This document shows positions 16-56,072 of a DNA stretch of 64,000 nt, one piece after another. Position 1 is the first letter of the stretch, and each line of letters begins with the position of its first letter. The notes under the pieces are model-generated. The model had not been told where the DNA came from. It worked only from the letters and a program-made list of their open reading frames with translations, and ran no database searches. Both the position numbers and the translations under genes were made by a program. The stretch comes from an uncultured delta proteobacterium (GTDB taxonomy: Bacteria > Desulfobacterota > Binatia > Binatales > Binataceae): positions 256,001-320,000 of the forward strand of contig CAVXXK010000006.1 of assembly GCA_963765675.1 (NCBI GenBank). The letters run 5' to 3'.

Positions 16-699
16 TCAGAGCAGGGCGATTCCGACGAAGGTTTTGAAAAACTTGTGGGTTTCGGACGAGGCGTACGGCTCCATCTTGAGCTCCAGGCGC
101 ATGCGGTAAAACCCGTCCGGCATCGCGGCGTCGGGCGGCGGATTGTCCGCCCATACCGCGCTCTTGGCGGCGTCGACGAAGGTCCGATCGACGATTCCCT
201 TGCCGCTGTGTTGTTCCACCACTATTTCCTTGAGCTTGCCGCTCGGGTCGAGCGTGGCGGTCAGCACGACGGGTTGCAGATCGGAGGGCAGACTAGCGTG
301 TCCGATATTGCCGTTCGCTTCCTGCAGATAGACCGCCTGCCACAGGCGATCGACCAGCACGCCCGAGAAGCTTGCGAACTTCGCCGCCTTGGGATTTTGC
401 AGCTTCTCGATACCCGGAGACTGGTCCGGACCAACATGGCGGACGGTGCCCGGCGCTTCTTCGCTCGCGCGGACCGAGCCGGGAGCATTGTAAACGTGAG
501 TAGCGGCAAACGCGGCCGACGGATCCATGATCGGGTTGATCGGCTGAGTCGACAGCGTGGAAAGATCGTTGACGAAATGCGGGGTTGAAACCGCCCCGGG
601 CTCTTCCGTATCAGGCGGGTTGAACAGACTGCATCCCACGAGCGCGGCCGCGAGCGCGTAGCTGAGTAAAGCGCACACCAGAATCCTTGGTAGTCTCAC
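16..699 (-). CDS. Lipoprotein with C-terminal TonB_C-like domain
   Basis: Signal peptide with lipobox ALVG-C. C-terminal VVLTATLDPSGKLKEIVVEQHSG..VDRTFVDAAKSA resembles the TonB C-terminal pattern. Start overlaps the upstream stop by 4 bp. Confidence 0.55.
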   Translation of the reverse strand: MRLPRILVCALLSYALAAALVGCSLFNPPDTEEPGAVSTPHFVNDLSTLSTQPINPIMDPSAAFAATHVYNAPGSVRASEEAPGTVRHVGPDQSPGIEKLQNPKAAKFASFSGVLVDRLWQAVYLQEANGNIGHASLPSDLQPVVLTATLDPSGKLKEIVVEQHSGKGIVDRTFVDAAKSAVWADNPPPDAAMPDGFYRMRLELKMEPYASSETHKFFKTFVGIALL

Positions 700-2204
700 T
701 TGTCCTTCGCCTGCGCCGCATCGAGCGCCAAAATCCGCTGCCGCGCACTATTGTAGTCGCTCGCGAAGGCGTCGAAAAGTTCCTCGCCGAATTTGCGCTC
801 GTCGCTGCGCACCGCTTCGTTGTGCTGGTCGGCAATCTTGTCGCCCACCTTGGCCAGGAACTCGAGCGTCGGCGAGTATTCGAATTGACCGGTGAACCCA
901 AGGGTGTAGCGGTCGAGTCCCTCACCTGTGCGGCGCGACGCGAAGGTCGAGGTCAGTCCGCCGTTTCCCTGGGCCAGCACGCGCAGGAACTCGCCCGCGA
1001 TCAGGTCGATCACCTTATGGATACCCGGCGGTGCGATCAGCTCGGGCACTTCGTTCATCGTGTTGATCGCGACTATCGAGTCGCCGTCGCGCCGGTAGTC
1101 GGTCGTGAAGCCGACTTTTTCCAGCCCGAAGACCATTCCCAGCCGGTACACACGCACAGAAGCCTCAGTCCGGTAGCTGCCGTGCTCGACGCTCTGGATC
1201 GCGACGCTTTCCCCGGCAGGGCGATAGTTCTTGTCGAACGGGGCGAGCAGGCCGTTTCGGTCCATGAAGATCAGGTGCATCCGTCCGCGATCGAACCGCG
1301 AGATCATCCAATAATTTCCCGCCGCATCCTGGATCGCCGACTCGGCCACCAGCACCGGCGCGACCTTGCGATAGAAATCATAAAGATGCGGATACGCCTT
1401 CAGCGCGTCCATCCGGACCTCAACGTCGGCATTGAACAGCACGGTCGGACCGCCCGCGTCGTCGAACTCGTCGAGCACGTTGTGAAAGATGAGATAGTGA
1501 TCGAGCTTGGCGGCGAACGCCGGCATCTCGCGATGAAACCGCGCCAGCGCGGCGCGATCATGATGATTGAATTCGCCCGGCGCGGTGTCCCACGGCGCTT
1601 TCAGATCGCCATGAATCTGCCGGAGGCCGTCCGCCGCCAGATCGACGACCGCGCTCGCGGGATAGGTGTCCATCAACAGCTCGCCGGCGAGCAGTCCGAC
1701 GACGCTCGAGGTCCCGGTATCTGGCGTGGGAACCGGCGTGATCGTGAACTGGCCGGCCATGTGCTGAGGAGCTTCGGGGCTCACGTACTTGTCCGTCAGC
1801 TTGTAGAGGTACTCGCCCGATTTCGGGCCACCCGAGACGGCAATCTGATGCGCTCCGTTCTTGAGCGATTGCCACGGAATATCCGGCTGGGAGTAAAGTG
1901 CGGAGGCGCGGATCAGAGTCGATTCGCGCGGTGGCATCTTTTCGACCAGCTTGGTCAGCGCGTCGTCCAGCTCGGGATGAAACGAGATCGCGCGCTGGAA
2001 GGTGAGCTGACGATCGAAGATCAGGATCGCACGCGCCGCGCGGTCCGGTCCGGGCGATGCAAGCTCGATGATCGGTGCGAAGATCGTCTCACTGTCGGGC
2101 GCAAACCCCGGCGCGACTGCGGGAAGCGTCGGCGCTGGTTTGGCGGACGATTGCGCAGTGCCTTCGGCACGTACAAGGCTGGAAAACGCCAGTATCGCCA
2201 GCAT
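696..2204 (-). CDS. Hypothetical exported protein (~500 aa)
   Basis: 3' part of ORF 696..3224. Signal-like MLAILAFSSLVRA from ATG 2204 (start could be ~2240). The part of the ORF further upstream is antisense to rpmE/prfA. Confidence 0.7.
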   Translation of the reverse strand: MLAILAFSSLVRAEGTAQSSAKPAPTLPAVAPGFAPDSETIFAPIIELASPGPDRAARAILIFDRQLTFQRAISFHPELDDALTKLVEKMPPRESTLIRASALYSQPDIPWQSLKNGAHQIAVSGGPKSGEYLYKLTDKYVSPEAPQHMAGQFTITPVPTPDTGTSSVVGLLAGELLMDTYPASAVVDLAADGLRQIHGDLKAPWDTAPGEFNHHDRAALARFHREMPAFAAKLDHYLIFHNVLDEFDDAGGPTVLFNADVEVRMDALKAYPHLYDFYRKVAPVLVAESAIQDAAGNYWMISRFDRGRMHLIFMDRNGLLAPFDKNYRPAGESVAIQSVEHGSYRTEASVRVYRLGMVFGLEKVGFTTDYRRDGDSIVAINTMNEVPELIAPPGIHKVIDLIAGEFLRVLAQGNGGLTSTFASRRTGEGLDRYTLGFTGQFEYSPTLEFLAKVGDKIADQHNEAVRSDERKFGEELFDAFASDYNSARQRILALDAAQAKDK

Positions 2205-2324
2205 TGCGGCGATCGAAATCGTGGTTAAGTTACGTCGCAGGAAGGTACAAGAGCTGCGAATTGTGTGCGATCGCAGTGGATGATATTCTCTCAAGTAAGA
2301 GACTGGACCGCGAGAGTTGAACAA

Positions 2325-2525
2325 ATGAAAGCCGCAATCCATCCCGTATACCGTCGCTGCGTGGTTACCTGCGCCTGCGGCAACACGTTTGAGACCCGCT
2401 CGACGGTGGGAGAACTCCACGTCGAAGTCTGTTCCAAGTGCCATCCGTTCTACACCGGACAGCAGCGCCTGGTCGATACCGCTGGCCGCGTCGAGCGGTT
2501 CAAGCGCAGGTATGGAATGAAGTAG
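2325..2525 (+). CDS. rpmE: 50S ribosomal protein L31 (Zn-binding type)
   Basis: [38 protein letters not shown], with CxC and CxxC intact. Confidence 0.97.
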
Positions 2526-2602
2526 CATAGTAACTCCCGCCGCCCGAGGTTGCGGTCCGTAAAAGGATCGCAGCACCTGCGGGTGCGCGGGGGATTGGTC
2601 TT

Positions 2603-2634
2603 GCGGCGGGATGGTTCCCGCCGCGTTTGTTTTT
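2603..2634 (+). terminator. Intrinsic terminator-like hairpin between rpmE and prfA
   Basis: Perfect 9-bp stem GCGGCGGGA-TGGT-TCCCGCCGC followed by GTTTGTTTTT. Confidence 0.65.
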
Positions 2635-2684
2635 GGGGCCCGGGATTTCCCGAGGGGGACGGACGCACAGTCGCCCGGACGGCA

Positions 2685-3746
<1,062 letters not shown>

Positions 3747-7901: not shown

Positions 7902-8636
7902 ATGTTCGAAAAGTTCACCGTCATTCCCGCGATCGATCTGAAGGGCGGCGAAGTCGTGCGCCTGCTCCGCGGCGACATGGCGCGCGCGACCGTGTACGGC
8001 GCCGATCCGGCGGCGGTGGCGCGCAAGTTTGAGGAGCAGGGCGCCGAGCTGATTCATATCGTCGATCTCGACGGCGCCATCGCCGGAGCGCCCCGCAACC
8101 TGCCAGCGATCAAGCGAATCCGCGCGGCCGTGCGCTGCGCGATCGACGTGAGCGGAGGGCTCCGCACGATCGAAGCTATTCGCGCCGCGATCTCCTCGGG
8201 GGCCGACCGCGTGTCGATCGGCTCGGCGGCATTCCTCAACCCGGGCTTGATCCGCGATGCGTGCGCGGAGTTCCCCGGGCGCATCTTCGGCTCGCTTGAT
8301 ATCCGCGACGGCAAGCTCGCGATCAAAGGATGGGTCGAAACGAGCGAGCTTAGCGTCGAGCGCGCCTGCGCGATCTTCAGGGACGGCGGCGTCTCGGCGC
8401 TGACCGTCACCGATATCGCGCGCGATGGCGCGGAGACCGGCGTCGACGCGGCCAGGATGGCTGCGCTAGCCCGTCAGGCAGGACTACACATTATCGCGTC
8501 AGGTGGAGTCGCCTCCCTCGCGGACCTGCGAGGGCTGGCTGATCGCTTCGGCGACGGTGTAGTCGGAGCGATCGTCGGTCGAGCGCTCTACGAAGGACGC
8601 TTCGATCTGTCCGCCGCGCTCGCGATCGTTCGCTGA
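7902..8636 (+). CDS. hisA: ProFAR isomerase
   Basis: IPAIDLKGGEVVRL, HIVDLDGA, TDIARDG, IASGGV, GRALYEG. Confidence 0.95.
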   Translation: MFEKFTVIPAIDLKGGEVVRLLRGDMARATVYGADPAAVARKFEEQGAELIHIVDLDGAIAGAPRNLPAIKRIRAAVRCAIDVSGGLRTIEAIRAAISSGADRVSIGSAAFLNPGLIRDACAEFPGRIFGSLDIRDGKLAIKGWVETSELSVERACAIFRDGGVSALTVTDIARDGAETGVDAARMAALARQAGLHIIASGGVASLADLRGLADRFGDGVVGAIVGRALYEGRFDLSAALAIVR

Positions 8637-44380: not shown

Positions 44381-44587
44381 AGAATTCTCCTGGAACTCCT
44401 GAGACTTGATGGAGTCCCGCGATTGTCGCGCGAACTCTCCGAGGCCGCAAGCTGACGCTCGAGCGTTCTGGACGAAAGCTGGCGCATCTTATAAGAGAGC
44501 AGTCGCGCAAGGGTAAAGGGGCGTCCCGCATCGAATCCTTTCGCGGGACGCGATCGTACTAGAAGATAGAAGACCGTCGAGGCGAAT

Positions 44588-46277
44588 ATGACCAGGATCA
44601 AAACCATCCTAGCCACCACCGCGATTTTGGTTGCTTTCGCTGTACCGGCTTTCGCGCAATACCAACCGTGGCCGACTCCGTTTCCATCCGCTCCCAACTG
44701 GGGCGACTACGATCAGAGCCACACTTGGCGCGGCGCCGATTGGTGGTGGAACAATAATCCTGCCTGGGTGCGCGCGCACGATCCTGACTGGTGGGGCGAC
44801 TGGGACGATTCGCACGTATGGCGTCCGGCGTCGTGGTGGTGGGAGAACAATCCCGGATGGGTTCGTGCGCATCATCCGGAATGGTGGGGCGATTTCTACC
44901 AGGGCAAATGGTACCCGGCCGGATGGTGGTGGCAGAATCAGCGCGAATGGGCCGCTACGCATCATCCGGAATGGTGGGGCGACTTTGACGGACAGACGTG
45001 GCATCCGGCGCAGTGGTGGTGGATGACGCGCGCGGACTGGGCGCGAGCGCATCATCCGGAGTGGTGGGGCGATTCATGGGAGAACATCTGGTATCCCGCC
45101 GATTGGTGGTGGCAACTCCAACCCGATTGGGCGCGGGCGCATCACCCGGAATGGTGGGGCGACTATTGGCAGGGCACGTGGTACCCGGCCGGATGGTGGT
45201 GGCAGAACCAGCGCGACCTGTGCGAGAAAAATCATCCTGACTGGTGGGGCGCCTTCGACGATCAACACTTCTGGCGGCCCGCCGGATGGTGGTGGCAGAA
45301 CCACGCCGACTGGTGCGAAAAGAATCATCCAGACTGGTGGGGCGCGTTTGATCAGCAGCGCGTCTGGCGTCCTGCTGGATGGTGGTGGGACAACGATCCC
45401 GCGTGGGCACGCCAGAATCATCCTGACTGGTGGGGAGACTACGACGCTCAGCACGTATGGCGTCCGGCGTCGTGGTGGTGGGAGCATAATCCGGAGGAGG
45501 CTCGCGCCAATCACCCCGACTGGTGGGGCGATTTCGACGACAAGCATGTCTGGCACGCCGACGAATGGTGGCAGGCGCGCGATCCAAAGTGGGCCGCGCA
45601 GCATCATCCCGAATGGATCGGCGACTACGACGACAAGCATGTGTGGCACGACGTGAATTGGTGGGCCGCGAAAGATCCGGCCGAAGCGCGGACACGCCAT
45701 CCCGACTGGACGCCGCAACTAAGCCACGCGCTCGACCGCCAGCACCTGCAGGATCAGACCGCGTTGCAGCGCCAGCATACCAACCAGTTACGAGATCTCG
45801 AGACCCAGCAGACCGAGCAGCGCAACAACGAAGAACGCGCGCGTAACGAACAGCTACGCGCAATCGAGCAAAAGCATCAGCAGCAGGTTGACGCGCTCGA
45901 GCGCCAGCACGTGCAGGAGTCGGCGCAGCAGACCAAGCGCCAGCAGCAGGCGGCTGACGCGGAGCAGAGGCGCAACGACGCGGAGTCGGACGCATCAGGA
46001 CCAAATCGCTGCCTTGCAGCGGCAGCATCAGCAGCAACTCCAGCAGTATCAGCGCCAGCGCGCGCAGCAGGAAAACGCGTCGCGCGACGCGAGAGTCCGC
46101 GCCCGGCAGACGCTGCTGGAGCAGCACGCGCGGGAAACCTCGGCGCTGGAGCAGAAGCATGCCGAGCAGATGAGATCATTCGGGTCGCGCGCCGAGGCGC
46201 GTCCGGCCGAGCCGCGCGCCAGATCGAATCCTCCTGCCGAAAGACGGGAGGTCCCGCCTGCGCGCGACAAGCGCTAG
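44588..46277 (+). CDS. Secreted Trp/His-rich tandem-repeat protein with Gln-rich coiled-coil tail; probable frameshift near 45987
   Basis: GAGG RBS, signal peptide ending AFA|Q, 11 repeats. The Q/E/R-rich tail continues in the +1 frame to a stop at 46277; the uncorrected ORF runs to 46387. Confidence 0.85.
44693..45700 (+). repeat. Intragenic tandem repeat, 11 x 90-93 bp
   Basis: Recurrent CATCCGGAATGGTGGGGCGA and TGGTGGTGG. Amino-acid consensus P[DE]WWGD[FY]DxxxxW[RYH]PAxWWWxNxPxWARxHH. Confidence 0.92.
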
Positions 46278-46344
46278 CTTATGAGGATCGCCGGGCGGGG
46301 CAATCAGATCCCGCTCGGCATTTAACTCGACGCCGTCCTTCTGA

Positions 46345-47205
46345 TCAGCTGAAGTTGGGCGAGCCGAGCGTTCCGCCCAGCGAATAGGGCGCGGTACCCG
46401 GTGGATGCGGCAGGAAGTTCAAGAGAAAGCGCAGCTTCATTCGCGCGGCCGCCGACGGTACCAGCGTGAAATGCAGCGCGAGCGCGCTGTCCCGCCACGC
46501 GGGCGCGAGCTTGATCGCGCCGCTGCCGTTGATCGCCAAGTCACCGCCGGAGGTCTTGAGGCTCGTGATCGAAAGCACGCCCTTTTCGAGCTTCAGCGTC
46601 GCGTCGAGCGCGCCCAGGTCGAGCAGCGGCATCGGTATTCTGAGGCGTCCGGAAAAGTTGGTTGCGCGAAGATGAATCGTTCCTGAGTCCAAGTTGGGAT
46701 CGTCAGGCATCACCAGCATAGAGCCCGTAGCGTCGAGGCTCCCGCCCAGCATCGCGCCGAGCGCGTGCAGGGCTTCGTAGCTGTTCAGATCGACCTTGTC
46801 GGCCGAAAATTTGAGCGCGGTGCCGGAACCGCTGCGATGCGCCGTAATCCTGATCGTTCCCTGGTAGGCGTCCGCGCTCGCGCGGATTCCGGGCCGAAGC
46901 AGCAAAATCGAGAGCAGAGCCGGTGCGATATGCACACTGTCGCTTTCGAATAGCGGGACCGCTCCGGGAGTGTAAGGCGCGATTCTGACTTGCGAGAGTT
47001 TTGCGCCAATTGGAATTGCCAGGCGTTGTCCGCCCGAGCTCACCCGCAGGCCCATCGGCGCCAGCACCGCGGAGAATGCGCTCGCATAGGGGAAGCTCGC
47101 GAACAGGAAGAAAAAGAACAGCACCACCCCCGTTGCAAGGTAGCCCGACTCGAGCCGATGCGTGCGCCAATACTCGAAGGTGAGGAGCTCTCTGAATTCA
47201 GGCAT
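46345..47205 (-). CDS. gspN: Type II secretion protein GspN-like
   Basis: N-terminal TM ending FPY, beta-rich body, LGGTLGSP C-terminus. Last gene of the gsp operon. Confidence 0.75.
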   Translation of the reverse strand: MPEFRELLTFEYWRTHRLESGYLATGVVLFFFFLFASFPYASAFSAVLAPMGLRVSSGGQRLAIPIGAKLSQVRIAPYTPGAVPLFESDSVHIAPALLSILLLRPGIRASADAYQGTIRITAHRSGSGTALKFSADKVDLNSYEALHALGAMLGGSLDATGSMLVMPDDPNLDSGTIHLRATNFSGRLRIPMPLLDLGALDATLKLEKGVLSITSLKTSGGDLAINGSGAIKLAPAWRDSALALHFTLVPSAAARMKLRFLLNFLPHPPGTAPYSLGGTLGSPNFS

Positions 47206-47842
47206 TGTGACCGAGCGCGACGCAGGTGATATCGACGTCGTAGGAATGAGTGTCCTGGGTGCGGCGCTGGATGCGCAAGTTCTCGACCCCGACCGGCACC
47301 GGCATCGTGCGCACGGAGTAGAGCGCGTCCACGATTTGCGCCAGGCTCACGTTCTCGAGCTTCAACTGTACGCTGTATTGCACCAGGCCGTCGGAGAGCT
47401 TCTTGTCCTCGGCCGGAGTGATCGAGGAAATCTTGCCGCGGCCGACGCTTTTGGTGAACGACGCTTCCACCACTGAAAACAGCGAGAAGTCCCTGCCTTG
47501 CGGAACGGTGCTGTGCTCGGCGCTTTCGAGGTCGGCCTTGACCGCCGCGTAGTTTGCCGCCAGATGCCGTACGCTGCCCAAGTCGTGTTCGCGCTCGGCT
47601 AGCCGCTGGTCGAGGCCCGAGTCGAAATCGACGATCGGAGAGTAGACGAGGTTATAAAGCAGGAAGATCGCGACCAACGCGGCGCCGATTTGAACCAGCA
47701 CGCGCTCGCGGGTCTCGAGCTTCTGATAACGCGCGCGGCTCTGCGCAATCAGCGGGTCGACCCGGTCGCGCAGTTGATCGATCTGCGGTCCGAGCGTCGC
47801 GCGGATCCACGCTTCGAGCTTTTGTATATATTCGCGCAGCAT
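47198..47842 (-). CDS. gspM: Type II secretion protein GspM
   Basis: LETRERVLV plus TM segment, coiled coil and ferredoxin-like C-terminus. Follows gspL. Confidence 0.8.
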   Translation of the reverse strand: MLREYIQKLEAWIRATLGPQIDQLRDRVDPLIAQSRARYQKLETRERVLVQIGAALVAIFLLYNLVYSPIVDFDSGLDQRLAEREHDLGSVRHLAANYAAVKADLESAEHSTVPQGRDFSLFSVVEASFTKSVGRGKISSITPAEDKKLSDGLVQYSVQLKLENVSLAQIVDALYSVRTMPVPVGVENLRIQRRTQDTHSYDVDITCVALGHNA

Positions 47843-47846
47843 CGCT

Positions 47847-49313
47847 TCAGTCGGCTCCGCCGTCCGAGTCTTTGAAGTCCGCACTCATTCGGAACTCGAC
47901 CTTGCTTGCGTCCTCGCCGGCGCGCGCGTGGGTGACCTCGATCGCGCCGAAATTGCCGCCCAGGTCGAGCGCGTGCTTGACCTCGTCAACCGAGGTGAAC
48001 GAATCGGCAAGTCCGGTCACGCGGAGTCCCGTGGCGTCGATTTGTACGTCTTCCAACTGGACGGGCAGGCGCTTGGGAATCGCGTCGGAGAGCGCGCGCA
48101 GCGTCTCGAGCGGCGAGTTGCGCGCGACGTTTCCGCCGATCAGGCGCAGGCGCTTGTTCATCGAGGCGATACCGCTGCGCAACTCCCGCATCGGATCGGC
48201 GGGGTTGCTTTCGCCCAATACAGGACCGGCGATCGCGGCTATCTGCGAGTCGAGCACGCTCAGGCGATGCAGCTTGCCGATCACTCCTGAAGCGAAATTC
48301 AGTAGAATCAGAAACACCACGCAGGCGGCGAGGATCGCGGGAGTGTAGAACGGTGTCAGGTCGCCGCGCGTGCTTCCACGAAAGGCGAAGGCCGCCTGGC
48401 GGAAGTTCAGCAACGCCACCGGCTTGGTCGGCAGCTCCCCCACCAACATCGCGATCGTGGTGCCGAAGCGCGTGATATCGGGCCGCGTACCGCCGAACAT
48501 CGCCGAGCAATCAAACTCGCGCGCCTCGCGCGGAACCAGAGCAACCGCTTCCGCCAGCATTGCCTTGACCCTTGGCATCGCGGCTCCCGCTCCGGTGATG
48601 ATCAGGTCTCCACCTTCGAGTTCGGCGGCATGCGCCAGCATCGTTTGCCGCAGAGCGTTGACGACCGGGGTAGCCTGCGCGGGCGTGGGCGCTGCGCCGT
48701 CCGCGTTGATCAACCCGCCGCCAACGGTTCGCATCACGCGCGGAATTCCCTCGACATCGAGCAGCACCATCGAGGTCGAATCCTGCTCAGCTTCGACCAC
48801 CAGGTGCGGCGTCGGACGCGTGCCGTTGCGCGCCCGCGAGAACATCGCGGCCAGAGCGTAGGGCGCGAGCGTCACGGTCTTGGGGTCGAGACCCGCGCGG
48901 GCAAGCAACTCCAGATGATGCTGCATCTCCTGTTTGCGCGCGAATGCGGCCAGCACCAGCGACCTGTCGCCGTCAGTGCCCAGGCGCGTGAACGCGATGA
49001 CAGCTCCATCGACCGGGAACGGCAGATGCTCTTCGAGCGCGAACGGAACCACCTGATGCAGCCGGCGCAAATCGCCGAACGGCAACTCGAGAATTCTTTT
49101 GGTGACCGCCTCTGAAGGGAGCGCGGAGATCAGGATATCGGGGCGCCCGGATTTCTCGGTCAGGCGCAACAACGCCGGCACGACATCGGTCTCGTCGGGC
49201 TGCTGATGGGCTTCAAAAACGCCGACGAAATCGAACGTATTCCAGGTGCGATTCGCGGCTGCGGCGCGTACCCGTTCTCCGGCGATCTCGAGAGCAATAA
49301 TACGCTGAGGCAT
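47847..49313 (-). CDS. gspL: Type II secretion protein GspL (PilM/PilN-like)
   Basis: Actin-like N-domain (LPF..VVPFALEEHLPF, IITGAGA), LNFRQ, TM segment, PilN-like C-domain. Confidence 0.8.
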   Translation of the reverse strand: MPQRIIALEIAGERVRAAAANRTWNTFDFVGVFEAHQQPDETDVVPALLRLTEKSGRPDILISALPSEAVTKRILELPFGDLRRLHQVVPFALEEHLPFPVDGAVIAFTRLGTDGDRSLVLAAFARKQEMQHHLELLARAGLDPKTVTLAPYALAAMFSRARNGTRPTPHLVVEAEQDSTSMVLLDVEGIPRVMRTVGGGLINADGAAPTPAQATPVVNALRQTMLAHAAELEGGDLIITGAGAAMPRVKAMLAEAVALVPREAREFDCSAMFGGTRPDITRFGTTIAMLVGELPTKPVALLNFRQAAFAFRGSTRGDLTPFYTPAILAACVVFLILLNFASGVIGKLHRLSVLDSQIAAIAGPVLGESNPADPMRELRSGIASMNKRLRLIGGNVARNSPLETLRALSDAIPKRLPVQLEDVQIDATGLRVTGLADSFTSVDEVKHALDLGGNFGAIEVTHARAGEDASKVEFRMSADFKDSDGGAD

Positions 49314-49325
49314 CTGAACCCGTCG

Positions 49326-50279
49326 CTAATCTTCCTGCCAGGACATAAGCGTTGCGGTCCCGTTGCCCTGCCGACGGAAAGTCGAGTACACCAGTTTTCT
49401 CGACCCAGCGAAAGTACCCATCGCGCTGATGGTAAAGAAGCTGCTCTTGGTGGTTACGACTTGCATGAGCTGCTGCGAAATCGCGCCCAGATCGGGCAGG
49501 TTTCCGATGTCCGTGACGTTGGTAAACGGCGTCAGCATCCGCGCCGCGACGATCTCTTTGACCATCTTGGGATCGTCCATGAGCTGCGGCAGCAGCGAGG
49601 CCAGAACCTCCGGCGGCGCGGTATTGGCGTTTACAACAGGCTCGGGATAGACGGTCACGAATGGAAGCAGGGTGTTGAAGGTTGCTTCATCGATACCCTT
49701 AATCAGGCGCAAGTCGCCTATCGTCGGCATCATGTTGTTGCGCGGAGAGTAGGGCGGCACCAGGCGCATGTAAAAGTCCATTCCAGCGCCGCCCGGTGAC
49801 TCGATGTTAGCAGGATTGATCCAGTCGGCGATGGCTGGAACGAGCTGAGGCGAGACTCCCAGGATCGTGAACAGCCGCACCAGCTGCTCCGCCAGAGGTT
49901 CGTTCAATTTTCCGTTCTGCTGGTTGATGAGCTGATTCAAATCAACCTTGCGCGCTTCATCGACGATAGACAAAGAGACCTTGCCGCCGTCCACGTCGAT
50001 CGGCGGAAACGGCACCGCCCACACGTCCGTCAGCGCGTCATACGGAGTCTGGCTCAACGAATCCGTGCGTGAGTCCTCAGCCAAAAGGCCGAGTCCGACC
50101 GAGACCGCCGAGCGCGCAAGATAGTACGCGCGCAACTCGTTGGTCTGATTGGCGGCGGACAGGTAGTTCAGCGCGGCGGCGGTGCTGAAATCGACGATGA
50201 TCAATGTCATCAGTGCGATACCCATCAGCACGACCAGCAGCGCGATGCCGCGCTCGCTTTTTTTGAGCTGCTTCACCAT
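49326..50279 (-). CDS. gspK: Minor pseudopilin GspK
   Basis: ERG|IALLVVL, DEARKVDLN, IADWI, LRLIKG, VNANTAP. Confidence 0.9.
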   Translation of the reverse strand: MVKQLKKSERGIALLVVLMGIALMTLIIVDFSTAAALNYLSAANQTNELRAYYLARSAVSVGLGLLAEDSRTDSLSQTPYDALTDVWAVPFPPIDVDGGKVSLSIVDEARKVDLNQLINQQNGKLNEPLAEQLVRLFTILGVSPQLVPAIADWINPANIESPGGAGMDFYMRLVPPYSPRNNMMPTIGDLRLIKGIDEATFNTLLPFVTVYPEPVVNANTAPPEVLASLLPQLMDDPKMVKEIVAARMLTPFTNVTDIGNLPDLGAISQQLMQVVTTKSSFFTISAMGTFAGSRKLVYSTFRRQGNGTATLMSWQED

Positions 50280-50908
50280 ACGGCAATCGACATCGGCAGC
50301 ATCACCTGGGTCGAGAAGCGCAGGTCGCGCCCGTTGGGTGCGGCCATGTCGAGATTGATCGAGACCGCGATCGGAAGCTGGTTGCCGGGAGAGAGGATGT
50401 CAGAGTTCCAGGTATCGCCCCATTGATTGCCATCGAAATAGCGCATCCTGAGCGACAAGACGTTGTCCGCAAGAATGATCGGCGTGGACGCCCCTCCGGT
50501 CGCGAGGCCGCTGCGCTGCGTTCGCTCGAGGATCATCCATCCGCGATGCGACGGGTTCTGGACCAGAGAGTAGGTGACGATATCTTCCGGACTAAAGCCG
50601 GCCAGCGCGCGGCGATGGGCCGCGTCGAGGGTCGAGATCGAGATCGAATTGGCCGCGGACCCGGCGATGAACTGGTCGATGCCGTGGAGCATCACGCGGC
50701 TTTGCGCGGCGGGCGTCTGCACCGCGCCGCGGATCTCGCTGGTCAGCTCCCAGATAATCGAACGGCCGGCACGGTCGGCCCACATTCGTCCCTCAGCGTG
50801 CATCTTGCTGGCGGCGACCGCGTGAAACGAGCTCGCCATCATCGCCATGATGATCGCCAGAATCGCGACTGCGAGCATCATCTCGATCAGCGTGAATCCG
50901 CGCGCCAT
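50273..50908 (-). CDS. gspJ: Minor pseudopilin GspJ
   Basis: RG|FTLIEMMLA, LRMRYFDG..W..W..LPIAV. Confidence 0.85.
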   Translation of the reverse strand: MARGFTLIEMMLAVAILAIIMAMMASSFHAVAASKMHAEGRMWADRAGRSIIWELTSEIRGAVQTPAAQSRVMLHGIDQFIAGSAANSISISTLDAAHRRALAGFSPEDIVTYSLVQNPSHRGWMILERTQRSGLATGGASTPIILADNVLSLRMRYFDGNQWGDTWNSDILSPGNQLPIAVSINLDMAAPNGRDLRFSTQVMLPMSIAVW

Positions 50909-50938
50909 GCGGCGCGATTGATTGTTGGCGGATCCGGA

Positions 50939-51382
50939 TCATGGTTGGTCTTCGTCGGAGTCGGAATCGCCGTTCTGCGGCTCGACGGGAATCGGGTTGT
51001 GCAGGAACTCCGTCAGCTCGAAGCTCTTTGAATGATTAGGCCCGTAAAAAACGATCACCTGAACCTTGCACACGTCGGGAAAGAATCCCGACATAGTGAC
51101 GATCTGCTCCCAGCTAAAATTCGGATATTCCTTTGGAAACAGGGTCTCGAAGTTGCCCTTGGTCATTCCCGGATCCGGAAATCGCTCCATTTCCGCGACC
51201 GACATGACCGCCTGCGCGAGTTGCGCGGCGCGCGATATGTCCTGCCCGTGGATCACGCTCTGCAGGCTCTGATGATGCAGCGCGAGCAGCGCCAGCAGCG
51301 CGATTCCCAGTACCGCCATCGCGAGCATCACCTCGAGCAGGGTGAAGCCCGCCCGCATCCGACGCTTCAGCTCGGGGGTCAT
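50939..51382 (-). CDS. gspI: Minor pseudopilin GspI
   Basis: AG|FTLLEVMLAMAVL. Position between gspH and gspJ. Confidence 0.85.
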   Translation of the reverse strand: MTPELKRRMRAGFTLLEVMLAMAVLGIALLALLALHHQSLQSVIHGQDISRAAQLAQAVMSVAEMERFPDPGMTKGNFETLFPKEYPNFSWEQIVTMSGFFPDVCKVQVIVFYGPNHSKSFELTEFLHNPIPVEPQNGDSDSDEDQP

Positions 51383-51966
51383 TGCTGCATCACTTGGGCA
51401 AAGGTCTGGTCGCCGGAGACGATCGCCACCTGTCCGGTGAGCGGGTTGAACGCCAGCGTCATCACGTGACCCGACAGATCCATCAGATGGACGAGCGTCG
51501 CGTCGACATAGCCCTCGGGATAGAACTGGCAAGCGACGGAGCCCTTGTCGAAGGTGCCCTGATCGGCGACGGTGACGTCGCGAATCTCGACCGACGGCGG
51601 CATCGCAACTATATTGCCGGCCATCGAATGGTCGGGAACGAATTGAGGATTGGCGGAATAGGGGTCGAGCCGCGCGACGGCGTAGCGCTGATGATCCATG
51701 TCGAAGATCAGCCGCAGCACCACCTTCTGTGTCGCCGCCTCGTCGTACAGATAAGAAACGCGCCCAGCGAGCCGGCGTGATTGGCTCTTTAGAGCAGCCT
51801 GCCGGTAGCCGCCCATGTACGGAATCGCGAGCGTGAACATCAGCGCCATTATGAAAATGACGATCGCGAGTTCGAGCAGAGTAAATCCGCGCTCGGCCGA
51901 AAGCCTTCCCGCGATCGCTCGGCGCGAAGTTCCGGCCCCGATGCACGAGTGAAGCGTGCGCCTCAT
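51379..51966 (-). CDS. gspH: Minor pseudopilin GspH
   Basis: RG|FTLLELAIVI, FYPEG, PLTG. Confidence 0.85.
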   Translation of the reverse strand: MRRTLHSCIGAGTSRRAIAGRLSAERGFTLLELAIVIFIMALMFTLAIPYMGGYRQAALKSQSRRLAGRVSYLYDEAATQKVVLRLIFDMDHQRYAVARLDPYSANPQFVPDHSMAGNIVAMPPSVEIRDVTVADQGTFDKGSVACQFYPEGYVDATLVHLMDLSGHVMTLAFNPLTGQVAIVSGDQTFAQVMQQ

Positions 51967-51973
51967 AGATTAC

Positions 51974-52390
51974 TCAGGACGAACTACCATCAATATCGTC
52001 GGCGCTTTGGACTCCGTCGGGTCCAAAGGATTTGAGCGAGTAGGTGTTGCCGTCGCTTTGGTAGAAGTACTGATTGCCCCACGGATCGTTCGGTAGTTTC
52101 TCGATATATCCGCCCTGTTCGTAGTTGTTCACCGGACGGCCGGTGGTCGGCGGAGTAACCAGCGCGTTGAGCCCCTGGTCGGTGGTCGGATAGGAACCGT
52201 TGTCCAGATAGTAACGATCCAGTGCCTGCTTTAGCTCCTGGATATCGGCCTGAGCCTTGGTGGTCTTCGCTCGATCGGCGACGCCGCGCAGCCGCGGCAC
52301 GACCATCAGCGCCAGCAGGCCGATAATCATGATGACCACCATTATTTCGATCAGGGTGAAGCCATCTTGATTGCGCAGTCGTGTTCGCAT
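51974..52390 (-). CDS. gspG: Major pseudopilin GspG
   Basis: G|FTLIEIMVV, ALDRYYLDNGSYPTTDQGLNAL, LPNDPWG, SFGPDG..DDI. Confidence 0.96.
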   Translation of the reverse strand: MRTRLRNQDGFTLIEIMVVIMIIGLLALMVVPRLRGVADRAKTTKAQADIQELKQALDRYYLDNGSYPTTDQGLNALVTPPTTGRPVNNYEQGGYIEKLPNDPWGNQYFYQSDGNTYSLKSFGPDGVQSADDIDGSSS

Positions 52391-52413
52391 CGTTAAACCT
52401 CGTGGCCCGCCGG

Positions 52414-53634
52414 TTACTGCATAATCTGGTTGAGCTGGAAGATCGGCATCAGCACCGCGAGCATCATGAAGACGATAACAGCCGCCATCGCAAGCGTCAT
52501 CACCGGCTCCAGAATCGTGGTCATCTGGCTGAGTGAGTGTGAGACTTCGCGTTCGTAATTGTCTGCGACCCGCTCGAGCATGCCTTCGAGCTCGCCCGAG
52601 CGCTCGCCAACGCGAATCATTTCGATCAGCAGGGGCGGGAAGAGGCCGCTCTGCGCGAGAGTGTGGCCCATGCCATGGCCCTCGCGAATTTCCTCGCGGC
52701 TCTTCTCGATCGCGTCGCGCAGCAGGCCATTGGTGACGACGCCCTTGACCGCGTCCATCGCGGGCAGCAGCTGCACGCCTGAGGCGAGCAGGGTCGAGAG
52801 CGTGCGCGCAAAGCGCGCGCAGATGATCCGGATCATCGTCGGACCCAGGTACGGCGCGCGCAGCACCGCCGTGTCGTATATACGGCGCCCGCGCGGCGTG
52901 GTCAGGCCGAAGGTCACGCCGGCGACTACTACGACCAGCAGCACCAGCAATTCGAGCCAGTAGCCGGTGATCGTGTCGGACAGACCGATTAGTACTTGTG
53001 TCGCAAACGGAAGCGCGGCGTGCTGTTGCTGGAAGATCGTCGCAACCTGTGGAACTACATAAGTCACCAGGAAGCCCATGATCGCCGTGCCGACGCAAAT
53101 CATGATCACAGGATAGGTCAGTGCACCGCGCACCTTCGCGACAAACTCGGATTGCCGTTCGCTGTACTCGGCCAGCCGGTCCAGGACCGATTCGAGCGCT
53201 GCCGCCTGCTCGCCCGCGCGAACCATCCCGACATAGAGTTCGGAGAAGACCTTCGGATGCATCGCCATCGCGTCGGCGAGCGAACTGCCCTCGCGCACGC
53301 GCTCGCGCACCTGCGAGAGCATCCGCTTGATACTCGATCGCGAAGACTGGCTCGAGAGAGCGCCCAGAGCGTCGACGAGCTGCACGCCCGCGCCGAGCAG
53401 CGCGCCGAGCTGGCGCGTGAGCAGGCCAAGCTCCGAGGCTTTCATCCCGCGCCGCGCAAACGGCGACAGGCTGCGCTCGGGTTTTATCTCGGCGCCAGCC
53501 TCGGCGGAGAGTTCGGTTGGAAAGATTCCCCGCTCACGCAGCACCGCGCGTGCGTCGCGCGGACTATCCGCGTCGATAACTCCGGATACGTTACGGCCTT
53601 CGGCTGAAAGGCCACGGTAAGCAAAGACCGCCAT
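52414..53634 (-). CDS. gspF: T2SS inner-membrane platform protein
   Basis: TRQLGALL, EGSSLADA, GMVRAGE, ALTYP, VGERSGEL, ILEP. Confidence 0.95.
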   Translation of the reverse strand: MAVFAYRGLSAEGRNVSGVIDADSPRDARAVLRERGIFPTELSAEAGAEIKPERSLSPFARRGMKASELGLLTRQLGALLGAGVQLVDALGALSSQSSRSSIKRMLSQVRERVREGSSLADAMAMHPKVFSELYVGMVRAGEQAAALESVLDRLAEYSERQSEFVAKVRGALTYPVIMICVGTAIMGFLVTYVVPQVATIFQQQHAALPFATQVLIGLSDTITGYWLELLVLLVVVVAGVTFGLTTPRGRRIYDTAVLRAPYLGPTMIRIICARFARTLSTLLASGVQLLPAMDAVKGVVTNGLLRDAIEKSREEIREGHGMGHTLAQSGLFPPLLIEMIRVGERSGELEGMLERVADNYEREVSHSLSQMTTILEPVMTLAMAAVIVFMMLAVLMPIFQLNQIMQ

Positions 53635-53655
53635 CGCTTTTGGCAGACATCGCGC

Positions 53656-55371
53656 TCAGGCGATGTCTTCCTGGGTCCGTAGCAGCAGCTCCTCGATCGA
53701 CGTTTCTCCAGCGAGTATCCGGTCGGCGCCGTCCTCGCGCAGGAGCTTCATCCCTTTGCTGGTGCAGTGCCGACGCAGAGTTGCGCCGTCGCTATTCTGC
53801 ATCACGAGCGCGCGAATCTCGTCGTCCATCAGCATCAATTCCTGGATCGCAAGGCGGCCCTTGTAACCGGTGTTGCGGCACAGACGGCATCCCTTTGCGC
53901 GATAGACCGCGTGCGGGATGTCAGCGGGCGTAAGCCCGAGGCGGGCCAGTTCCGCGGCGGTCGGAGTGTAGGCCTCGCGGCATTCGACGCAGAGCTTGCG
54001 CACCAGGCGCTGCGCCAGCACGGCGAGGATCGAAGAGGACACCAGGAATGGCTCGATTCCAAAATCGAGTAGTCGCGTGACCGCGCCGAATGAATCGTTG
54101 GTGTGCAGAGTAGAGAACACCAGGTGCCCCGTCAGCGCGGACTGGATCGCGATCTCGGCGGTCTCGCCGTCGCGGATTTCGCCGACCATGATCACGTCCG
54201 GATCCTGGCGCAGGATCGATCGAAGTCCGCTGGCGAAGGTCAGATCGATCTTCGGATTTACCTGCATCTGGCCGACGCCGCGAAGCTGGTACTCGATTGG
54301 ATCTTCGATCGTGATGATGTTTTTCTCGGGCGAGTTGATCCGGCTGAGGCACGCATACAGCGTGGTCGATTTTCCCGAGCCGGTTGGACCGGTCGCGAGG
54401 ATAATTCCGTGGCTCTGCCGAATCAGCCGATCGATCTTGCGCAGATTTTCGCCGGAAAATCCCAGGCGGTCGAGATTGATATCCACCGCCGCCTGTGCAC
54501 GATCGAGCAAGCGCAGCACCAGGCGTTCGCCAAACGCGGTCGGAATACTCGAGACGCGGATATCGATATCGCGCCCGGCGATCCGGAGCCGGATACGTCC
54601 GTCCTGCGGCAACCGCTTCTCAGCGATATTGAGACCCGACATGACCTTCACGCGCGAGGTGATCGCGGGCTGAAAACGCTTGGGTGGCTCGAGCACGTCG
54701 TACAGCATCCCGTCCACCCGGAAGCGCACAACCATCTCGCGCTCGAAAACTTCTATATGAATATCGCTGGCGCGATCCTTCACGGCCTGCGACAGGATCC
54801 CGTTGACCAGCTTGATAATCGGCGCCGAGTCGTCGGTCTCGAGCAGGTCGCGCGGCTCCTGCGCGAGTTCGTTGGCGACCACATCGAGCCGCTCTTCTTC
54901 GAGATCGATCATCAATTCTTCGGCGGTCGTGTTGCTCGCGTTGTCGTAGGCGCGATTGATCGCCTCGTTGATCACCTCGGCAGGCGCCACGACCGGATTT
55001 ATCGGCAAACCGAACAACAGGCGAAGATCGTCGAGCGGTTCGTAATTTGAAGGATCGACAATTGCGACCGTGACACCCGACCCGTCGCTCGCGATAGCGA
55101 GTAGCCGGTTTTTCTTCGCATAATTTATTGGGACTTTGCTGACCAGCGCGCTATCGAGCGAGTGTTCATCGATATGTGCCTGGAAGGGCAGGCGATATTC
55201 CTGAGCGAGCGCGCGGGCCAGACGCTGCGGCTCGAGCGCGCCCATCTCGACCAGCACGTCGGCCAGCTCCTGGCCGGGCTTGCGCCGCTGGCGAGCCTTA
55301 TCGAGGTCCTGCGGCGAGACCCACGAGCGGTCTAGCAGGATCGACTCGAAACTCTTACGCGCAGTGGCCAT
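53656..55371 (-). CDS. gspE: T2SS ATPase
   Basis: ASDIH, RLPQDG, GPTGSGKST, TIEDP, LRQDPDVIMVGEIRD, STLHTN, CxxC..CxxC. Confidence 0.96.
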   Translation of the reverse strand: MATARKSFESILLDRSWVSPQDLDKARQRRKPGQELADVLVEMGALEPQRLARALAQEYRLPFQAHIDEHSLDSALVSKVPINYAKKNRLLAIASDGSGVTVAIVDPSNYEPLDDLRLLFGLPINPVVAPAEVINEAINRAYDNASNTTAEELMIDLEEERLDVVANELAQEPRDLLETDDSAPIIKLVNGILSQAVKDRASDIHIEVFEREMVVRFRVDGMLYDVLEPPKRFQPAITSRVKVMSGLNIAEKRLPQDGRIRLRIAGRDIDIRVSSIPTAFGERLVLRLLDRAQAAVDINLDRLGFSGENLRKIDRLIRQSHGIILATGPTGSGKSTTLYACLSRINSPEKNIITIEDPIEYQLRGVGQMQVNPKIDLTFASGLRSILRQDPDVIMVGEIRDGETAEIAIQSALTGHLVFSTLHTNDSFGAVTRLLDFGIEPFLVSSSILAVLAQRLVRKLCVECREAYTPTAAELARLGLTPADIPHAVYRAKGCRLCRNTGYKGRLAIQELMLMDDEIRALVMQNSDGATLRRHCTSKGMKLLREDGADRILAGETSIEELLLRTQEDIA

Positions 55372-55538: not shown

Positions 55539-55976
55539 CTAGTAGTGGTTACCGGCCGGCGGCGCTACCTGTGGCGCGGTCATCCCGGCTGAGAATCCTC
55601 CGCTCTGCTTGGGCGGCATCGTGTGCTCCGCCTCGGCCCATGAGACGAGTTTGCCCCCCTGAAACTTCAAATCAACGAAAGTCCCTTTGTCGCCTTCTTT
55701 CACCTGGGTGTACAGGAGCGAGGCAGTCAGGTCGTTGGAATTGGGCTTGTAAGCGTAACTCCAGACCTCGACATCCGATGACACGAACTGATGGATATCC
55801 GGCTCGCCGTACTTTTGATGGATCTCGATCATCGACTCGCCGACCTTGAGGTGCTCGGTCATGCGCGAAGCTTTGACCCGGGTGCCGGCCTGGTAGAACA
55901 GGCCGCATCCGAATAGCGGTGCGACGGCGAGTGCGGCGATCATCACGAGCGGAGCAAATCGAACCATTTTCTCCAT
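55539..55976 (-). CDS. Lipoprotein, SmpA/BamE-like
   Basis: Lipobox PLFG-C. LKVGES..EI..KYGEPD..EVWSY..F.GGKLVSW pattern. Confidence 0.65.
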   Translation of the reverse strand: MEKMVRFAPLVMIAALAVAPLFGCGLFYQAGTRVKASRMTEHLKVGESMIEIHQKYGEPDIHQFVSSDVEVWSYAYKPNSNDLTASLLYTQVKEGDKGTFVDLKFQGGKLVSWAEAEHTMPPKQSGGFSAGMTAPQVAPPAGNHY

Positions 55977-56072
55977 CGGCGAATTGTGTTTGGCCCGGCG
56001 CGGTCTTGTCAACGAATCGCGCGAACCATGCTATAGAAGCTTGGTGGAGTTAGCCACGCAGGGGAGGCCCGG

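Follow-up and report, generated by a model that had tools for sequence, protein, structure and literature searches.

The ZraP/CpxP/Spy (LTXXQ) group comprises helical proteins of small to medium size that are exported, rich in Gln and set with His residues at regular positions; of these, ZraP binds Zn and is sigma-54 dependent. A second set of exported proteins, including SmbP, SilE/PcoE and the PHGGG copper-binding octarepeat, is repetitive and rich in His, Asp and Glu. In this work, we analyzed a gene of an uncultured member of the Binataceae (Desulfobacterota; Binatia; Binatales) that encodes an exported tandem-repeat protein extremely rich in tryptophan (Trp), and that lies next to a type II secretion system (T2SS) operon. 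The window, meaning the whole stretch of DNA that was analyzed, comprises 64,000 nucleotides (positions 256,001 to 320,000, forward strand, of contig CAVXXK010000006.1, assembly GCA_963765675.1), and had been the subject of an earlier note made from the sequence alone. We show that this gene, hereafter the Trp-rich gene, is real and under strong purifying selection. It belongs to an undescribed family with no detectable sequence or structural relative, which appears to be confined, as far as searched, to the Binataceae. Our best guess for its function, held tentatively and at less than even odds, is that it forms a rod in the periplasm or envelope whose His, Asp and Glu residues, set at regular intervals, would bind metal.

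The two groups of proteins named above, ZraP/CpxP/Spy and the small His-rich periplasmic metal binders, may be the nearest analogies to this protein, in function only. The protein differs from ZraP in that its tail repeat is 11 residues long and carries xLxRQH motifs, and in that ZraP has no Trp array; models of LTXXQ and metal-resistance helical hairpins gave no match to the tails of three homologues (L004, L006, and L007) at E<=10. It differs from SmbP and SilE/PcoE in that there is no sequence relationship and in that the window protein lacks a Gly/His end. The likeness to the PHGGG octarepeat lies in the PHGGGG-like ends of many homologue tails and in the GHGHGH...HH end of a paralogue in the same genome.

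Repeat architecture and selection

As assembled, the Trp-rich open reading frame (ORF) spans 44588..46387 on the plus strand and encodes 599 amino acids (aa) according to the ORF list. It starts with an ATG at 44588, 6 bases after a GAGG (44579-44582). The features of the gene, in window coordinates, are the following:

44453..44587, plus strand: upstream region of the gene, holding a possible -10, a 9-bp inverted repeat and the GAGG
44588..44656, plus strand: Sec-type signal peptide, aa 1-23, cleavage after AFA, read from the sequence
44657..44695, plus strand: short Pro-rich linker, aa 24-36 (QYQPWPTPFPSAP)
44696..45697, plus strand: eleven Trp-rich units, aa 37-370, unit 1 degenerate
45698..45985, plus strand: tail part 1, Gln/Arg/Glu/His-rich and helical, aa 371-466, with xLxRQH motifs 11 residues apart
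45986, plus strand: extra T relative to orthologues, shifting the frame after codon 466 (from the alignment to L004; L005 is also in frame)
45987..46277, plus strand: tail part 2 in the ancestral frame, 96 codons plus a stop at 46275-46277, with two more His pairs and a basic, Pro-rich end
45986..46387, plus strand: Ala/Arg-rich out-of-frame extension of the assembled ORF, probably not biological

The earlier note had described a Sec signal followed by 11 repeats of 30-31 aa, a layout that is borne out both by reading the sequence and by cutting the repeats. The N-terminus (MTRIKTILATTAILVAFAVPAFA, followed after the cleavage site by QYQ) has a basic n-region, a hydrophobic core and an AxA site, with neither a lipobox Cys nor a twin-Arg motif. 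The signal was judged by reading rather than by a predictor, and the A-x-A-Q cleavage site is kept across the homologue alignment. The whole 599-aa ORF contains 75 Trp residues, 74 of which fall within the 341 aa of residues 35-375 (21.7%), a recount in good agreement with the ~73 Trp in 336 aa (~22%) counted before by hand. To our knowledge, proteins with more than 20% Trp in a conserved register are almost unknown. The same residues 35-375 include 27 His (7.9%) and only 13 Ile, Leu, Val or Met, while ten Pfam-supported genes of the window, used as a comparison set, average 0.75% Trp and 1.74% His. The array is acidic (55 Asp plus Glu vs. 25 Lys plus Arg; isoelectric point, pI, 5.1).

Unit 1 corresponds to aa 37-64 and is followed by ten units that begin with [HD]P[DE]W[WI]G, at aa 65, 96, 126, 156, 186, 216, 247, 278, 309, and 340. 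Units 2-11 measure 31, 30, 30, 30, 30, 31, 31, 31, 31, and 31 aa, and the DNA periods detected by Tandem Repeats Finder are 90, 93, and 180 nt (71-77% match). Two unit types can be distinguished: units 2 and 7-11 are of a 31-aa type and units 3-6 of a 30-aa type, the last two units being Trp-poorer. A set of 208 clean units from 27 homologues comprises 122 units of the 31-aa type, with the consensus HP[ED]WWGD[FY]D[DE]xH[VI]W[RH]PAxWWWxxxPxW[VA]Rx[HN], and 86 of the 30-aa type, with the consensus HPEWWGDxYQGxWYPAxWWWQxQPxWxxx[HN]. Pro2, Trp4, Gly6 and the second-strand Trp are essentially invariant, the latter being found in 99% of units overall (100% of the 30-aa and 98% of the 31-aa units). 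His1 is present in 93% of the 208 units, and Asp9 and His12 in 97% and 75%, respectively, of the 122 31-aa units.

The units of the window protein are only 32-71% identical to one another, and homologues at 50-66% identity have the same block order (31-aa units, 30-aa units, 31-aa units and two Trp-poorer terminal units), which argues that the array is old rather than the product of a recent expansion. The earlier note was right that the repeats have diverged while the Trp register stayed in place. Its suggestion of selection is also supported, by ratios of non-synonymous to synonymous substitution (dN/dS; Nei-Gojobori, aa 1-381) of 0.04-0.08: 0.039 against L004, 0.078 against L005, and 0.064 between L004 and L005. 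The array of the window protein contains two Cys residues, 31 residues apart; a disulfide bond between them was considered and dropped, as Cys is absent from the array in 10 of the 27 homologues.

Sequence family and distribution

The window protein matches no Pfam family at E<=0.01, and Pfam searches with the 27 aligned homologues at E<=10 returned chance-level matches only (TrbC, 0.3; DUF4179, 0.43; GATase, 2). The best NCBIfam match is TolA, on the tail (E=0.057; 12 bits against a cut-off of 213). A sequence search of the PDB with L004 gave nothing at E below 2, and the ESM Atlas returned unnamed clusters only (scores of 0.78 and 0.77). Literature searches found no description of the family. 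The statement of the earlier note that no family could be recognized is therefore upheld by Pfam, NCBIfam, PDB sequences and the literature searched, where no convincing match was found.

In an exhaustive HMMER search of 1.84 billion representative sequences, 77 proteins, mostly fragments, matched at E<=0.001; the count falls to 42 at E<=1e-10 and to 7 at E<=1e-30. A word-indexed search of 5.8 billion clusters gave 4 matches. All names supplied for these relatives read "hypothetical protein." A scan of one genome per species found 5 loci, titled Candidatus Binataceae or unclassified "proteobacteria" metagenome-assembled genomes (MAGs). Within the Binataceae, matches at E<=0.001 occur in 122 of 165 genomes, distributed over 20 of 30 genera. 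The long form, defined by E<=1e-40, is present in 65 of the 165 genomes and 16 of the 30 genera by hand count from the search table (tallies that include five genomes flagged as unpublished, G102 among the 65), and in 3 of the 10 genomes that belong to the genus of the window. Outside the Binataceae, an even sampling of the phylum (397 genomes) yielded no match at E<=1e-6.

The genome that holds the window (G000) encodes two short exported paralogues with two Trp units each, a layout also seen in the weaker HMMER matches. Besides the two Trp units, these short relatives have a helical N-terminal domain with the motif F-N-x-[FY]-L-x-x-H-P, and they terminate in a His-rich stretch or in a Gln/Arg tail. 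The two paralogues are:

L002, G000:C6 ~454605-455180: 192 aa ending GHGHGHDNDHHDNDHH, with an OmpA-family gene next after it
L003, G000:C1 ~248404-249378: 331 aa with a Gln/Arg tail, near lptD/lptE

Those relatives of L002 that have a taxonomic name belong, again, to the Binataceae. As the two-unit proteins carry the same unit, the eleven-unit protein can be regarded as an expanded form of the module. A sub-threshold haemophore (MHB) match (E 0.004-0.16) falls on the N-terminal domain of distant short relatives, a domain that the window protein lacks.

Predicted structure

Two AlphaFold2 runs were performed, one on aa 1-466 (28 sequences; mean predicted local distance difference test, pLDDT, 77.5; predicted template modeling score, pTM, 0.55) and one on the array alone (aa 34-372, 27 sequences; mean pLDDT 86, pTM 0.66). 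Both agree on a two-stranded hairpin (G-D-x / x-W-R) plus two 7-residue helices (A-x-W-W-W-x-N and P-x-W-V-R-x-H), eleven times over, with H-P-E-W-W linking each unit to the next, and then a long helix, which run 1 places as a single helix at aa 372-465. The models were judged by their secondary structure. The mature protein is thus predicted to consist of eleven mini-modules of ~30 residues with a core made almost entirely of Trp. Each module would be a Trp-flanked beta-hairpin with two short Pro-capped helices, and ~190 residues of helix would follow the array. The earlier note had proposed a solenoid or fibre, which the prediction supports only in part, as a string of hairpin-plus-two-helix modules.

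Foldseek found no match in the PDB at E<=0.001 for either model. Likewise, VIA-align found none at Z>=2 among 48,161 representative chains for the array model and, for the whole model, only generic coiled coils on residues 369-466 (Z<=7.1); a missing match of this kind does not establish a new fold, and elongated models inherently score poorly. Among known small folds, beta-beta-alpha zinc fingers and the Trp-zipper and Trp-cage miniproteins would be similar to the predicted module in being ~30-residue hairpin-plus-helix tandem modules or in having cross-strand aromatic pairs. The module differs from a C2H2 zinc finger in lacking Cys2His2 ligands (Cys is absent in 10 of 27 homologues), in having a second helix, and in giving no structural match.

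A possible metal-binding rod

Our tentative reading is that the protein, once exported by the Sec pathway, would remain within the periplasm or the cell envelope and form an acidic rod of elongated shape, which binds divalent metal ions and either buffers them or hands them over. The proposed ligands would be the HHP[ED] junction of every unit, the D-[DE]-x-H hairpin turn of the 31-aa units, and the tail-helix His residues at 11-residue spacing, and the Trp residues would serve as scaffold rather than as the active part.

Several observations are consistent with this reading. First, the array is acidic (pI 5.1), its His content of 7.9% compares with 1.74% in neighboring genes, and His1, Asp9 and His12 are conserved across units. 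Second, the tails of 24 homologues, taken after the last Trp, vary in length from 63 to 406 aa, are rich in Gln, Arg, Glu and Ala, and show a distinct periodicity: His-His spacings of 11, 22, and 33 occur in 64, 42, and 38 pairs, respectively, against ~4-25 pairs at other spacings up to 40. In the L004 tail, as read by eye, His residues stand at 12/23, 56/67, 94/105, and 138/149, in xLxRQH motifs. An 11-residue repeat in a helix would set such residues along one face, as a matter of general helix geometry rather than of a computation on these tails. Third, Gly/His runs of the PHGGGG kind terminate many homologue tails, and the two-unit paralogue L002 of the same genome ends in GHGHGHDNDHHDNDHH; the window clade has a basic, Pro-rich end instead.

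Finally, in genus g2 a gene for a NicO/RcnA-like Ni/Co transporter lies close downstream of the Trp-rich gene, in convergent orientation, in 5 of 6 loci sampled (L020, L021, L022, L036, and L037), which is suggestive of a link to metals. One example is:

L021:11866-12696, minus strand: NicO/RcnA-like membrane protein of 277 aa, with an H-x4-D-H motif and a His-rich loop

The match of this 277-aa protein to NicO is sub-threshold (E=4.5e-5; 23.4 bits vs. a cut-off of 27.7). Since the arrangement is convergent and seen in one genus only, it weighs no more than the adjacency to the T2SS operon that we reject below.

Other observations weigh against a metal-binding rod. No metal-binding family, motif model or solved structure matches the protein in Pfam, NCBIfam or the PDB, and its conserved His residues may instead be structural. 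The D-[DE]-x-H turn does not occur in the four 30-aa units, the window clade lacks the Gly/His tail, and a Pfam scan found no metal gene near the Trp-rich gene in the window. In addition, the neighbors of the short paralogues are envelope genes (OmpA-family, LptD/E) and not metal genes. The periplasmic location is itself assumed, and the T2SS present in nearly all Binataceae genomes could export the protein. The earlier note had listed a His/Asp/Trp binder of metal, specifically copper, among its options; the metal part receives indirect support from the His/Asp conservation and the His spacing, and we found nothing specific for copper.

A possible structural or binding role in the envelope

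The protein could alternatively be a structural or binding protein of the envelope, whose Trp faces stick to peptidoglycan, polysaccharide or the membrane interface and whose helix acts as a spacer or an oligomerizing stalk. We consider this unlikely, at about one chance in five. Carbohydrate-binding modules and cell-wall-binding repeats use aromatic platforms, and with seven Trp per unit, three of them consecutive on one helix, the Trp residues cannot all be buried. The choline- or cell-wall-binding CW_binding_1 repeats and other aromatic repeat binders are likewise short tandem repeats of exported proteins, rich in Trp, Tyr and Gly; their units are ~20 aa long with 1-2 aromatics, compared with 30-31 aa and seven Trp here, with no hidden Markov model (HMM) match between them. 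More broadly, no CW_binding, LysM, SPOR, SLH, OmpA or carbohydrate-binding model matches, even at E<=10.

The genomic neighborhood gives some hints in the direction of the envelope. A DPBB_1/RlpA-like gene is found at 5 of 23 loci, and the short paralogues lie near OmpA-family and LptD/E genes. The basic, Pro-rich C-terminal end of the window clade also speaks for this reading. However, the signals from neighboring genes are weak: no neighbor family is conserved beyond genus level among the 23 loci compared, and the most common one, an SDR family, occurs at 7 of them and at varying distance. Moreover, 7 of the 10 genomes in its own genus do not have the gene, in at least one case through deletion at the syntenic site, which disfavors an essential structural role.

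The reading frame after codon 466

The tail of the window protein is interrupted by the extra T at 45986. The orthologues L004 (97% identical) and L005 (93% identical) lack this base and are in frame, and as assembled the frameshift removes the last two His pairs of the tail. Read from 45987, the ancestral frame runs open as far as the stop that L004 uses, and of 98 codons compared 14 differ from L004 synonymously and 7 non-synonymously, which fits either a very recent change or an assembly error. The end at 46277 given in the earlier note is thus the true stop only if the extra T is skipped, and not the end of the assembled ORF. In the ancestral frame, 67 nt separate 46277 from the gspN stop codon starting at 46345, in keeping with the ~70 bp and convergent orientation reported before; the assembled ORF, ending at 46387, overlaps the 3' end of gspN by 43 nt.

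One explanation is that the T is real and that this copy is a recent pseudogene or truncated allele that has lost the last two His pairs and the basic end. The presence of the base in the assembly and the dispensability of the gene within the genus would agree with this. We nevertheless regard it as rather improbable, given the open downstream frame, the excess of synonymous over non-synonymous differences, and the fact that single-base insertions are a common assembly error. Public short-read contigs from four runs were also compared: the near-identical contigs (run X1) leave 45941-46074 uncovered, so that no contig of the near-identical strain spans the position, and the sole contig covering 45986 (run X3, a relative at ~94% identity) does not have the extra base. 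The extra T may be an assembly error.

Other deposited copies of the gene show comparable irregularities. The metagenome homologues P0003, P0004, P0005, P0007, and P0021 switch to an off-frame reading of the repeats, with runs like IIPNGGATTT, which indicates that frameshifts or miscalls are common in deposited copies of the Trp-rich gene. P0003 is also fused by read-through to an upstream R3H/KH-domain gene. In addition, public short-read contigs of two runs join window positions 44811 and 45450 (639 nt skipped or gone back), with 34-35 letters in common. Because these letters are shared on both sides, the joints are best seen as repeat-induced contig ambiguities and not as length variants. 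Repeat DNA of this length can confuse assemblies made at k=31, and repeat numbers in short-read MAGs of Binataceae should therefore be treated with caution.

The T2SS operon next to the Trp-rich gene

The earlier note had suggested that the protein may be a T2SS cargo. Such a cargo would fold in the periplasm, be pushed out by the neighboring Gsp machine, and act outside the cell as an adhesin or fibre. The features that bear on this proposal are:

46345..55371, minus strand: T2SS operon gspE-F-G-(H/I)-J-K-L-M-N, identified by Pfam, convergent with the Trp-rich gene and not part of the feature
L048 (G159:C3:734000-753000), positions 8220-8358: deletion-like site at which gspN and a luciferase-like gene are kept

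The Trp-rich gene abuts gspN in the window and in L004, its product has a Sec signal and no other sorting signal, and GspK (T2SSK_1st) is found in 160 of 165 Binataceae genomes, so that a T2SS is available nearly everywhere. On the other hand, the same count means that a T2SS is present with or without the Trp-rich gene, and the convergent orientation implies that the gene and the gsp operon are not co-transcribed. Linkage was tested by tblastn (E<=1e-5) of the Gsp proteins of the window against ~20 kb around the gene, at 22 distinct loci (L006-L008 and L020-L038, with L039 dropped as a duplicate of L006) from at least 10 other genera. None of the 22 had gspE, F, J, K, L, M or N within ~9-10 kb. 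Gsp proteins match near the gene only in L004, of the same genus, while the L005 contig stops shortly after the gene. Genomes assembled in long contigs have gsp and the Trp-rich gene far apart or on different contigs. Among the ORFs of the window that were scanned there is no secretin, and no gspC is recognizable in the window; the three secretin matches of the genome lie elsewhere, at C1:2114301, C6:64663 (~235 kb away), and C1:145430.

A further genome of the same genus (G159; 97% complete, 6 contigs) keeps the operon without the Trp-rich gene. In G159, only 140 nt separate gspN from the luciferase-like monooxygenase gene, and the segment corresponding to window 44453-46344 (1892 nt) is replaced by 72 nt, the start of which still resembles the upstream region of the gene. 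At the sequence level, this looks like a deletion allele of the Trp-rich gene. Together with the lack of linkage at the 22 loci of other genera, it makes the adjacency to the T2SS operon look like a genus-level accident of gene order. Export of the protein by the T2SS would be compatible with a lack of linkage. Conserved linkage would support, and not define, a substrate. All things considered, we judge the cargo proposal improbable, and the conspicuous place of the gene beside the operon does not amount to evidence of function. Upstream of gspE, on the minus strand, lies a 157-aa ORF (55539-56012) with no Pfam family.

Other readings of the array

It is very unlikely that the array is a derived HEAT-like (PBS-type) alpha-solenoid, in which Trp would have replaced the aliphatic core of a protein-binding scaffold. 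In a profile search of the PDB, the array matches the designed 31-residue alphaRep (E=0.011 over the whole chain), with which it shares the period of 31 and the W-V-R...G...D...P register. However, no single stretch of this match is significant, Pfam HEAT models match none of the 27 members at E<=10, and the hhalign probabilities against two natural HEAT_2 proteins that the same genome encodes are 3% and 0.1%. The predicted secondary structure also differs, AlphaFold2 placing a hairpin where HEAT has a helix.

An aromatic ladder with a physical role is highly improbable. Such a ladder would carry electrons or holes over a long range by hopping between stacked Trp rings, take up radicals, or screen or sense UV light. 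Only the extreme and conserved Trp density (21.7%, in strict register) speaks for it; there are no redox cofactor motifs, no haem-binding CxxCH and no Cu-site Met/Cys pattern (10 of the 27 homologues are without Cys), and the 23 loci have no conserved redox gene in the neighborhood. Also highly improbable is a more specific form, in which ~70 indole rings would stack continuously along a 15-20 nm rod, extended by the tail-helix His residues at 11-residue spacing. Together they would form a cofactor-free conduit or sink for electrons, holes or radicals across the periplasm, with metals at the His/Asp ladders as entry and exit points.

Upstream region and remaining ORFs

The upstream region (44453..44587) occurs only where the gene occurs, G159 lacking window 44453-46344 at the syntenic site. 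A consensus promoter scan found no sigma-70-like site upstream of the Trp-rich gene. A possible -10 (TATAAG) is located at 44490-44495 and would belong to a putative promoter. The presumed 5' untranslated region contains a perfect 9-bp inverted repeat (GCGTCCCGC / GCGGGACGC, 44521-44529 / 44543-44551) with a 13-nt loop. This repeat (44521-44551) lies ~40 nt before the start codon; L004 keeps part of it and L005 does not keep it. No plus-strand terminator was detected in a scan after the gene.

As ZraP is sigma-54 dependent, sigma-54-like sites are a further point of likeness, although one that is absent from the window clade. In the 350 nt before the window gene, and likewise before L004 and L005, no GG-N10-GC site scores >=9/11. 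The scan covered the window and 24 loci, and three of these 25 upstream regions have such a site, the other 22 none. The site, TGGCAA-N5-TTGC[TC], is located 180-220 nt upstream (L006, -217; L007, -182; L026, -207, relative to the match start), and the background rate is 0.04 per 380 nt. The three loci have recG/NUDIX synteny in common, and the site is specific to one subclade, which is not that of the window.

Elsewhere in the window, four sizeable ORFs, putative genes, have no Pfam family at E<=1e-6:

699-3224, minus strand: 842 aa
27142-28503, plus strand: 454 aa
28654-29637, minus strand: 328 aa
35618-37039, plus strand: 474 aa

Significance

The Trp-rich protein defines a family that is common in the Binataceae, a widespread and uncultured soil family. 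If the predicted module is real, it would represent a new way to build a stable mini-domain, with a Trp core and almost no aliphatic residues, which would be of interest to protein designers. If the His/Asp ladders bind metals, the family would constitute periplasmic metal buffers of a new class, in bacteria with an unexplored metal physiology.

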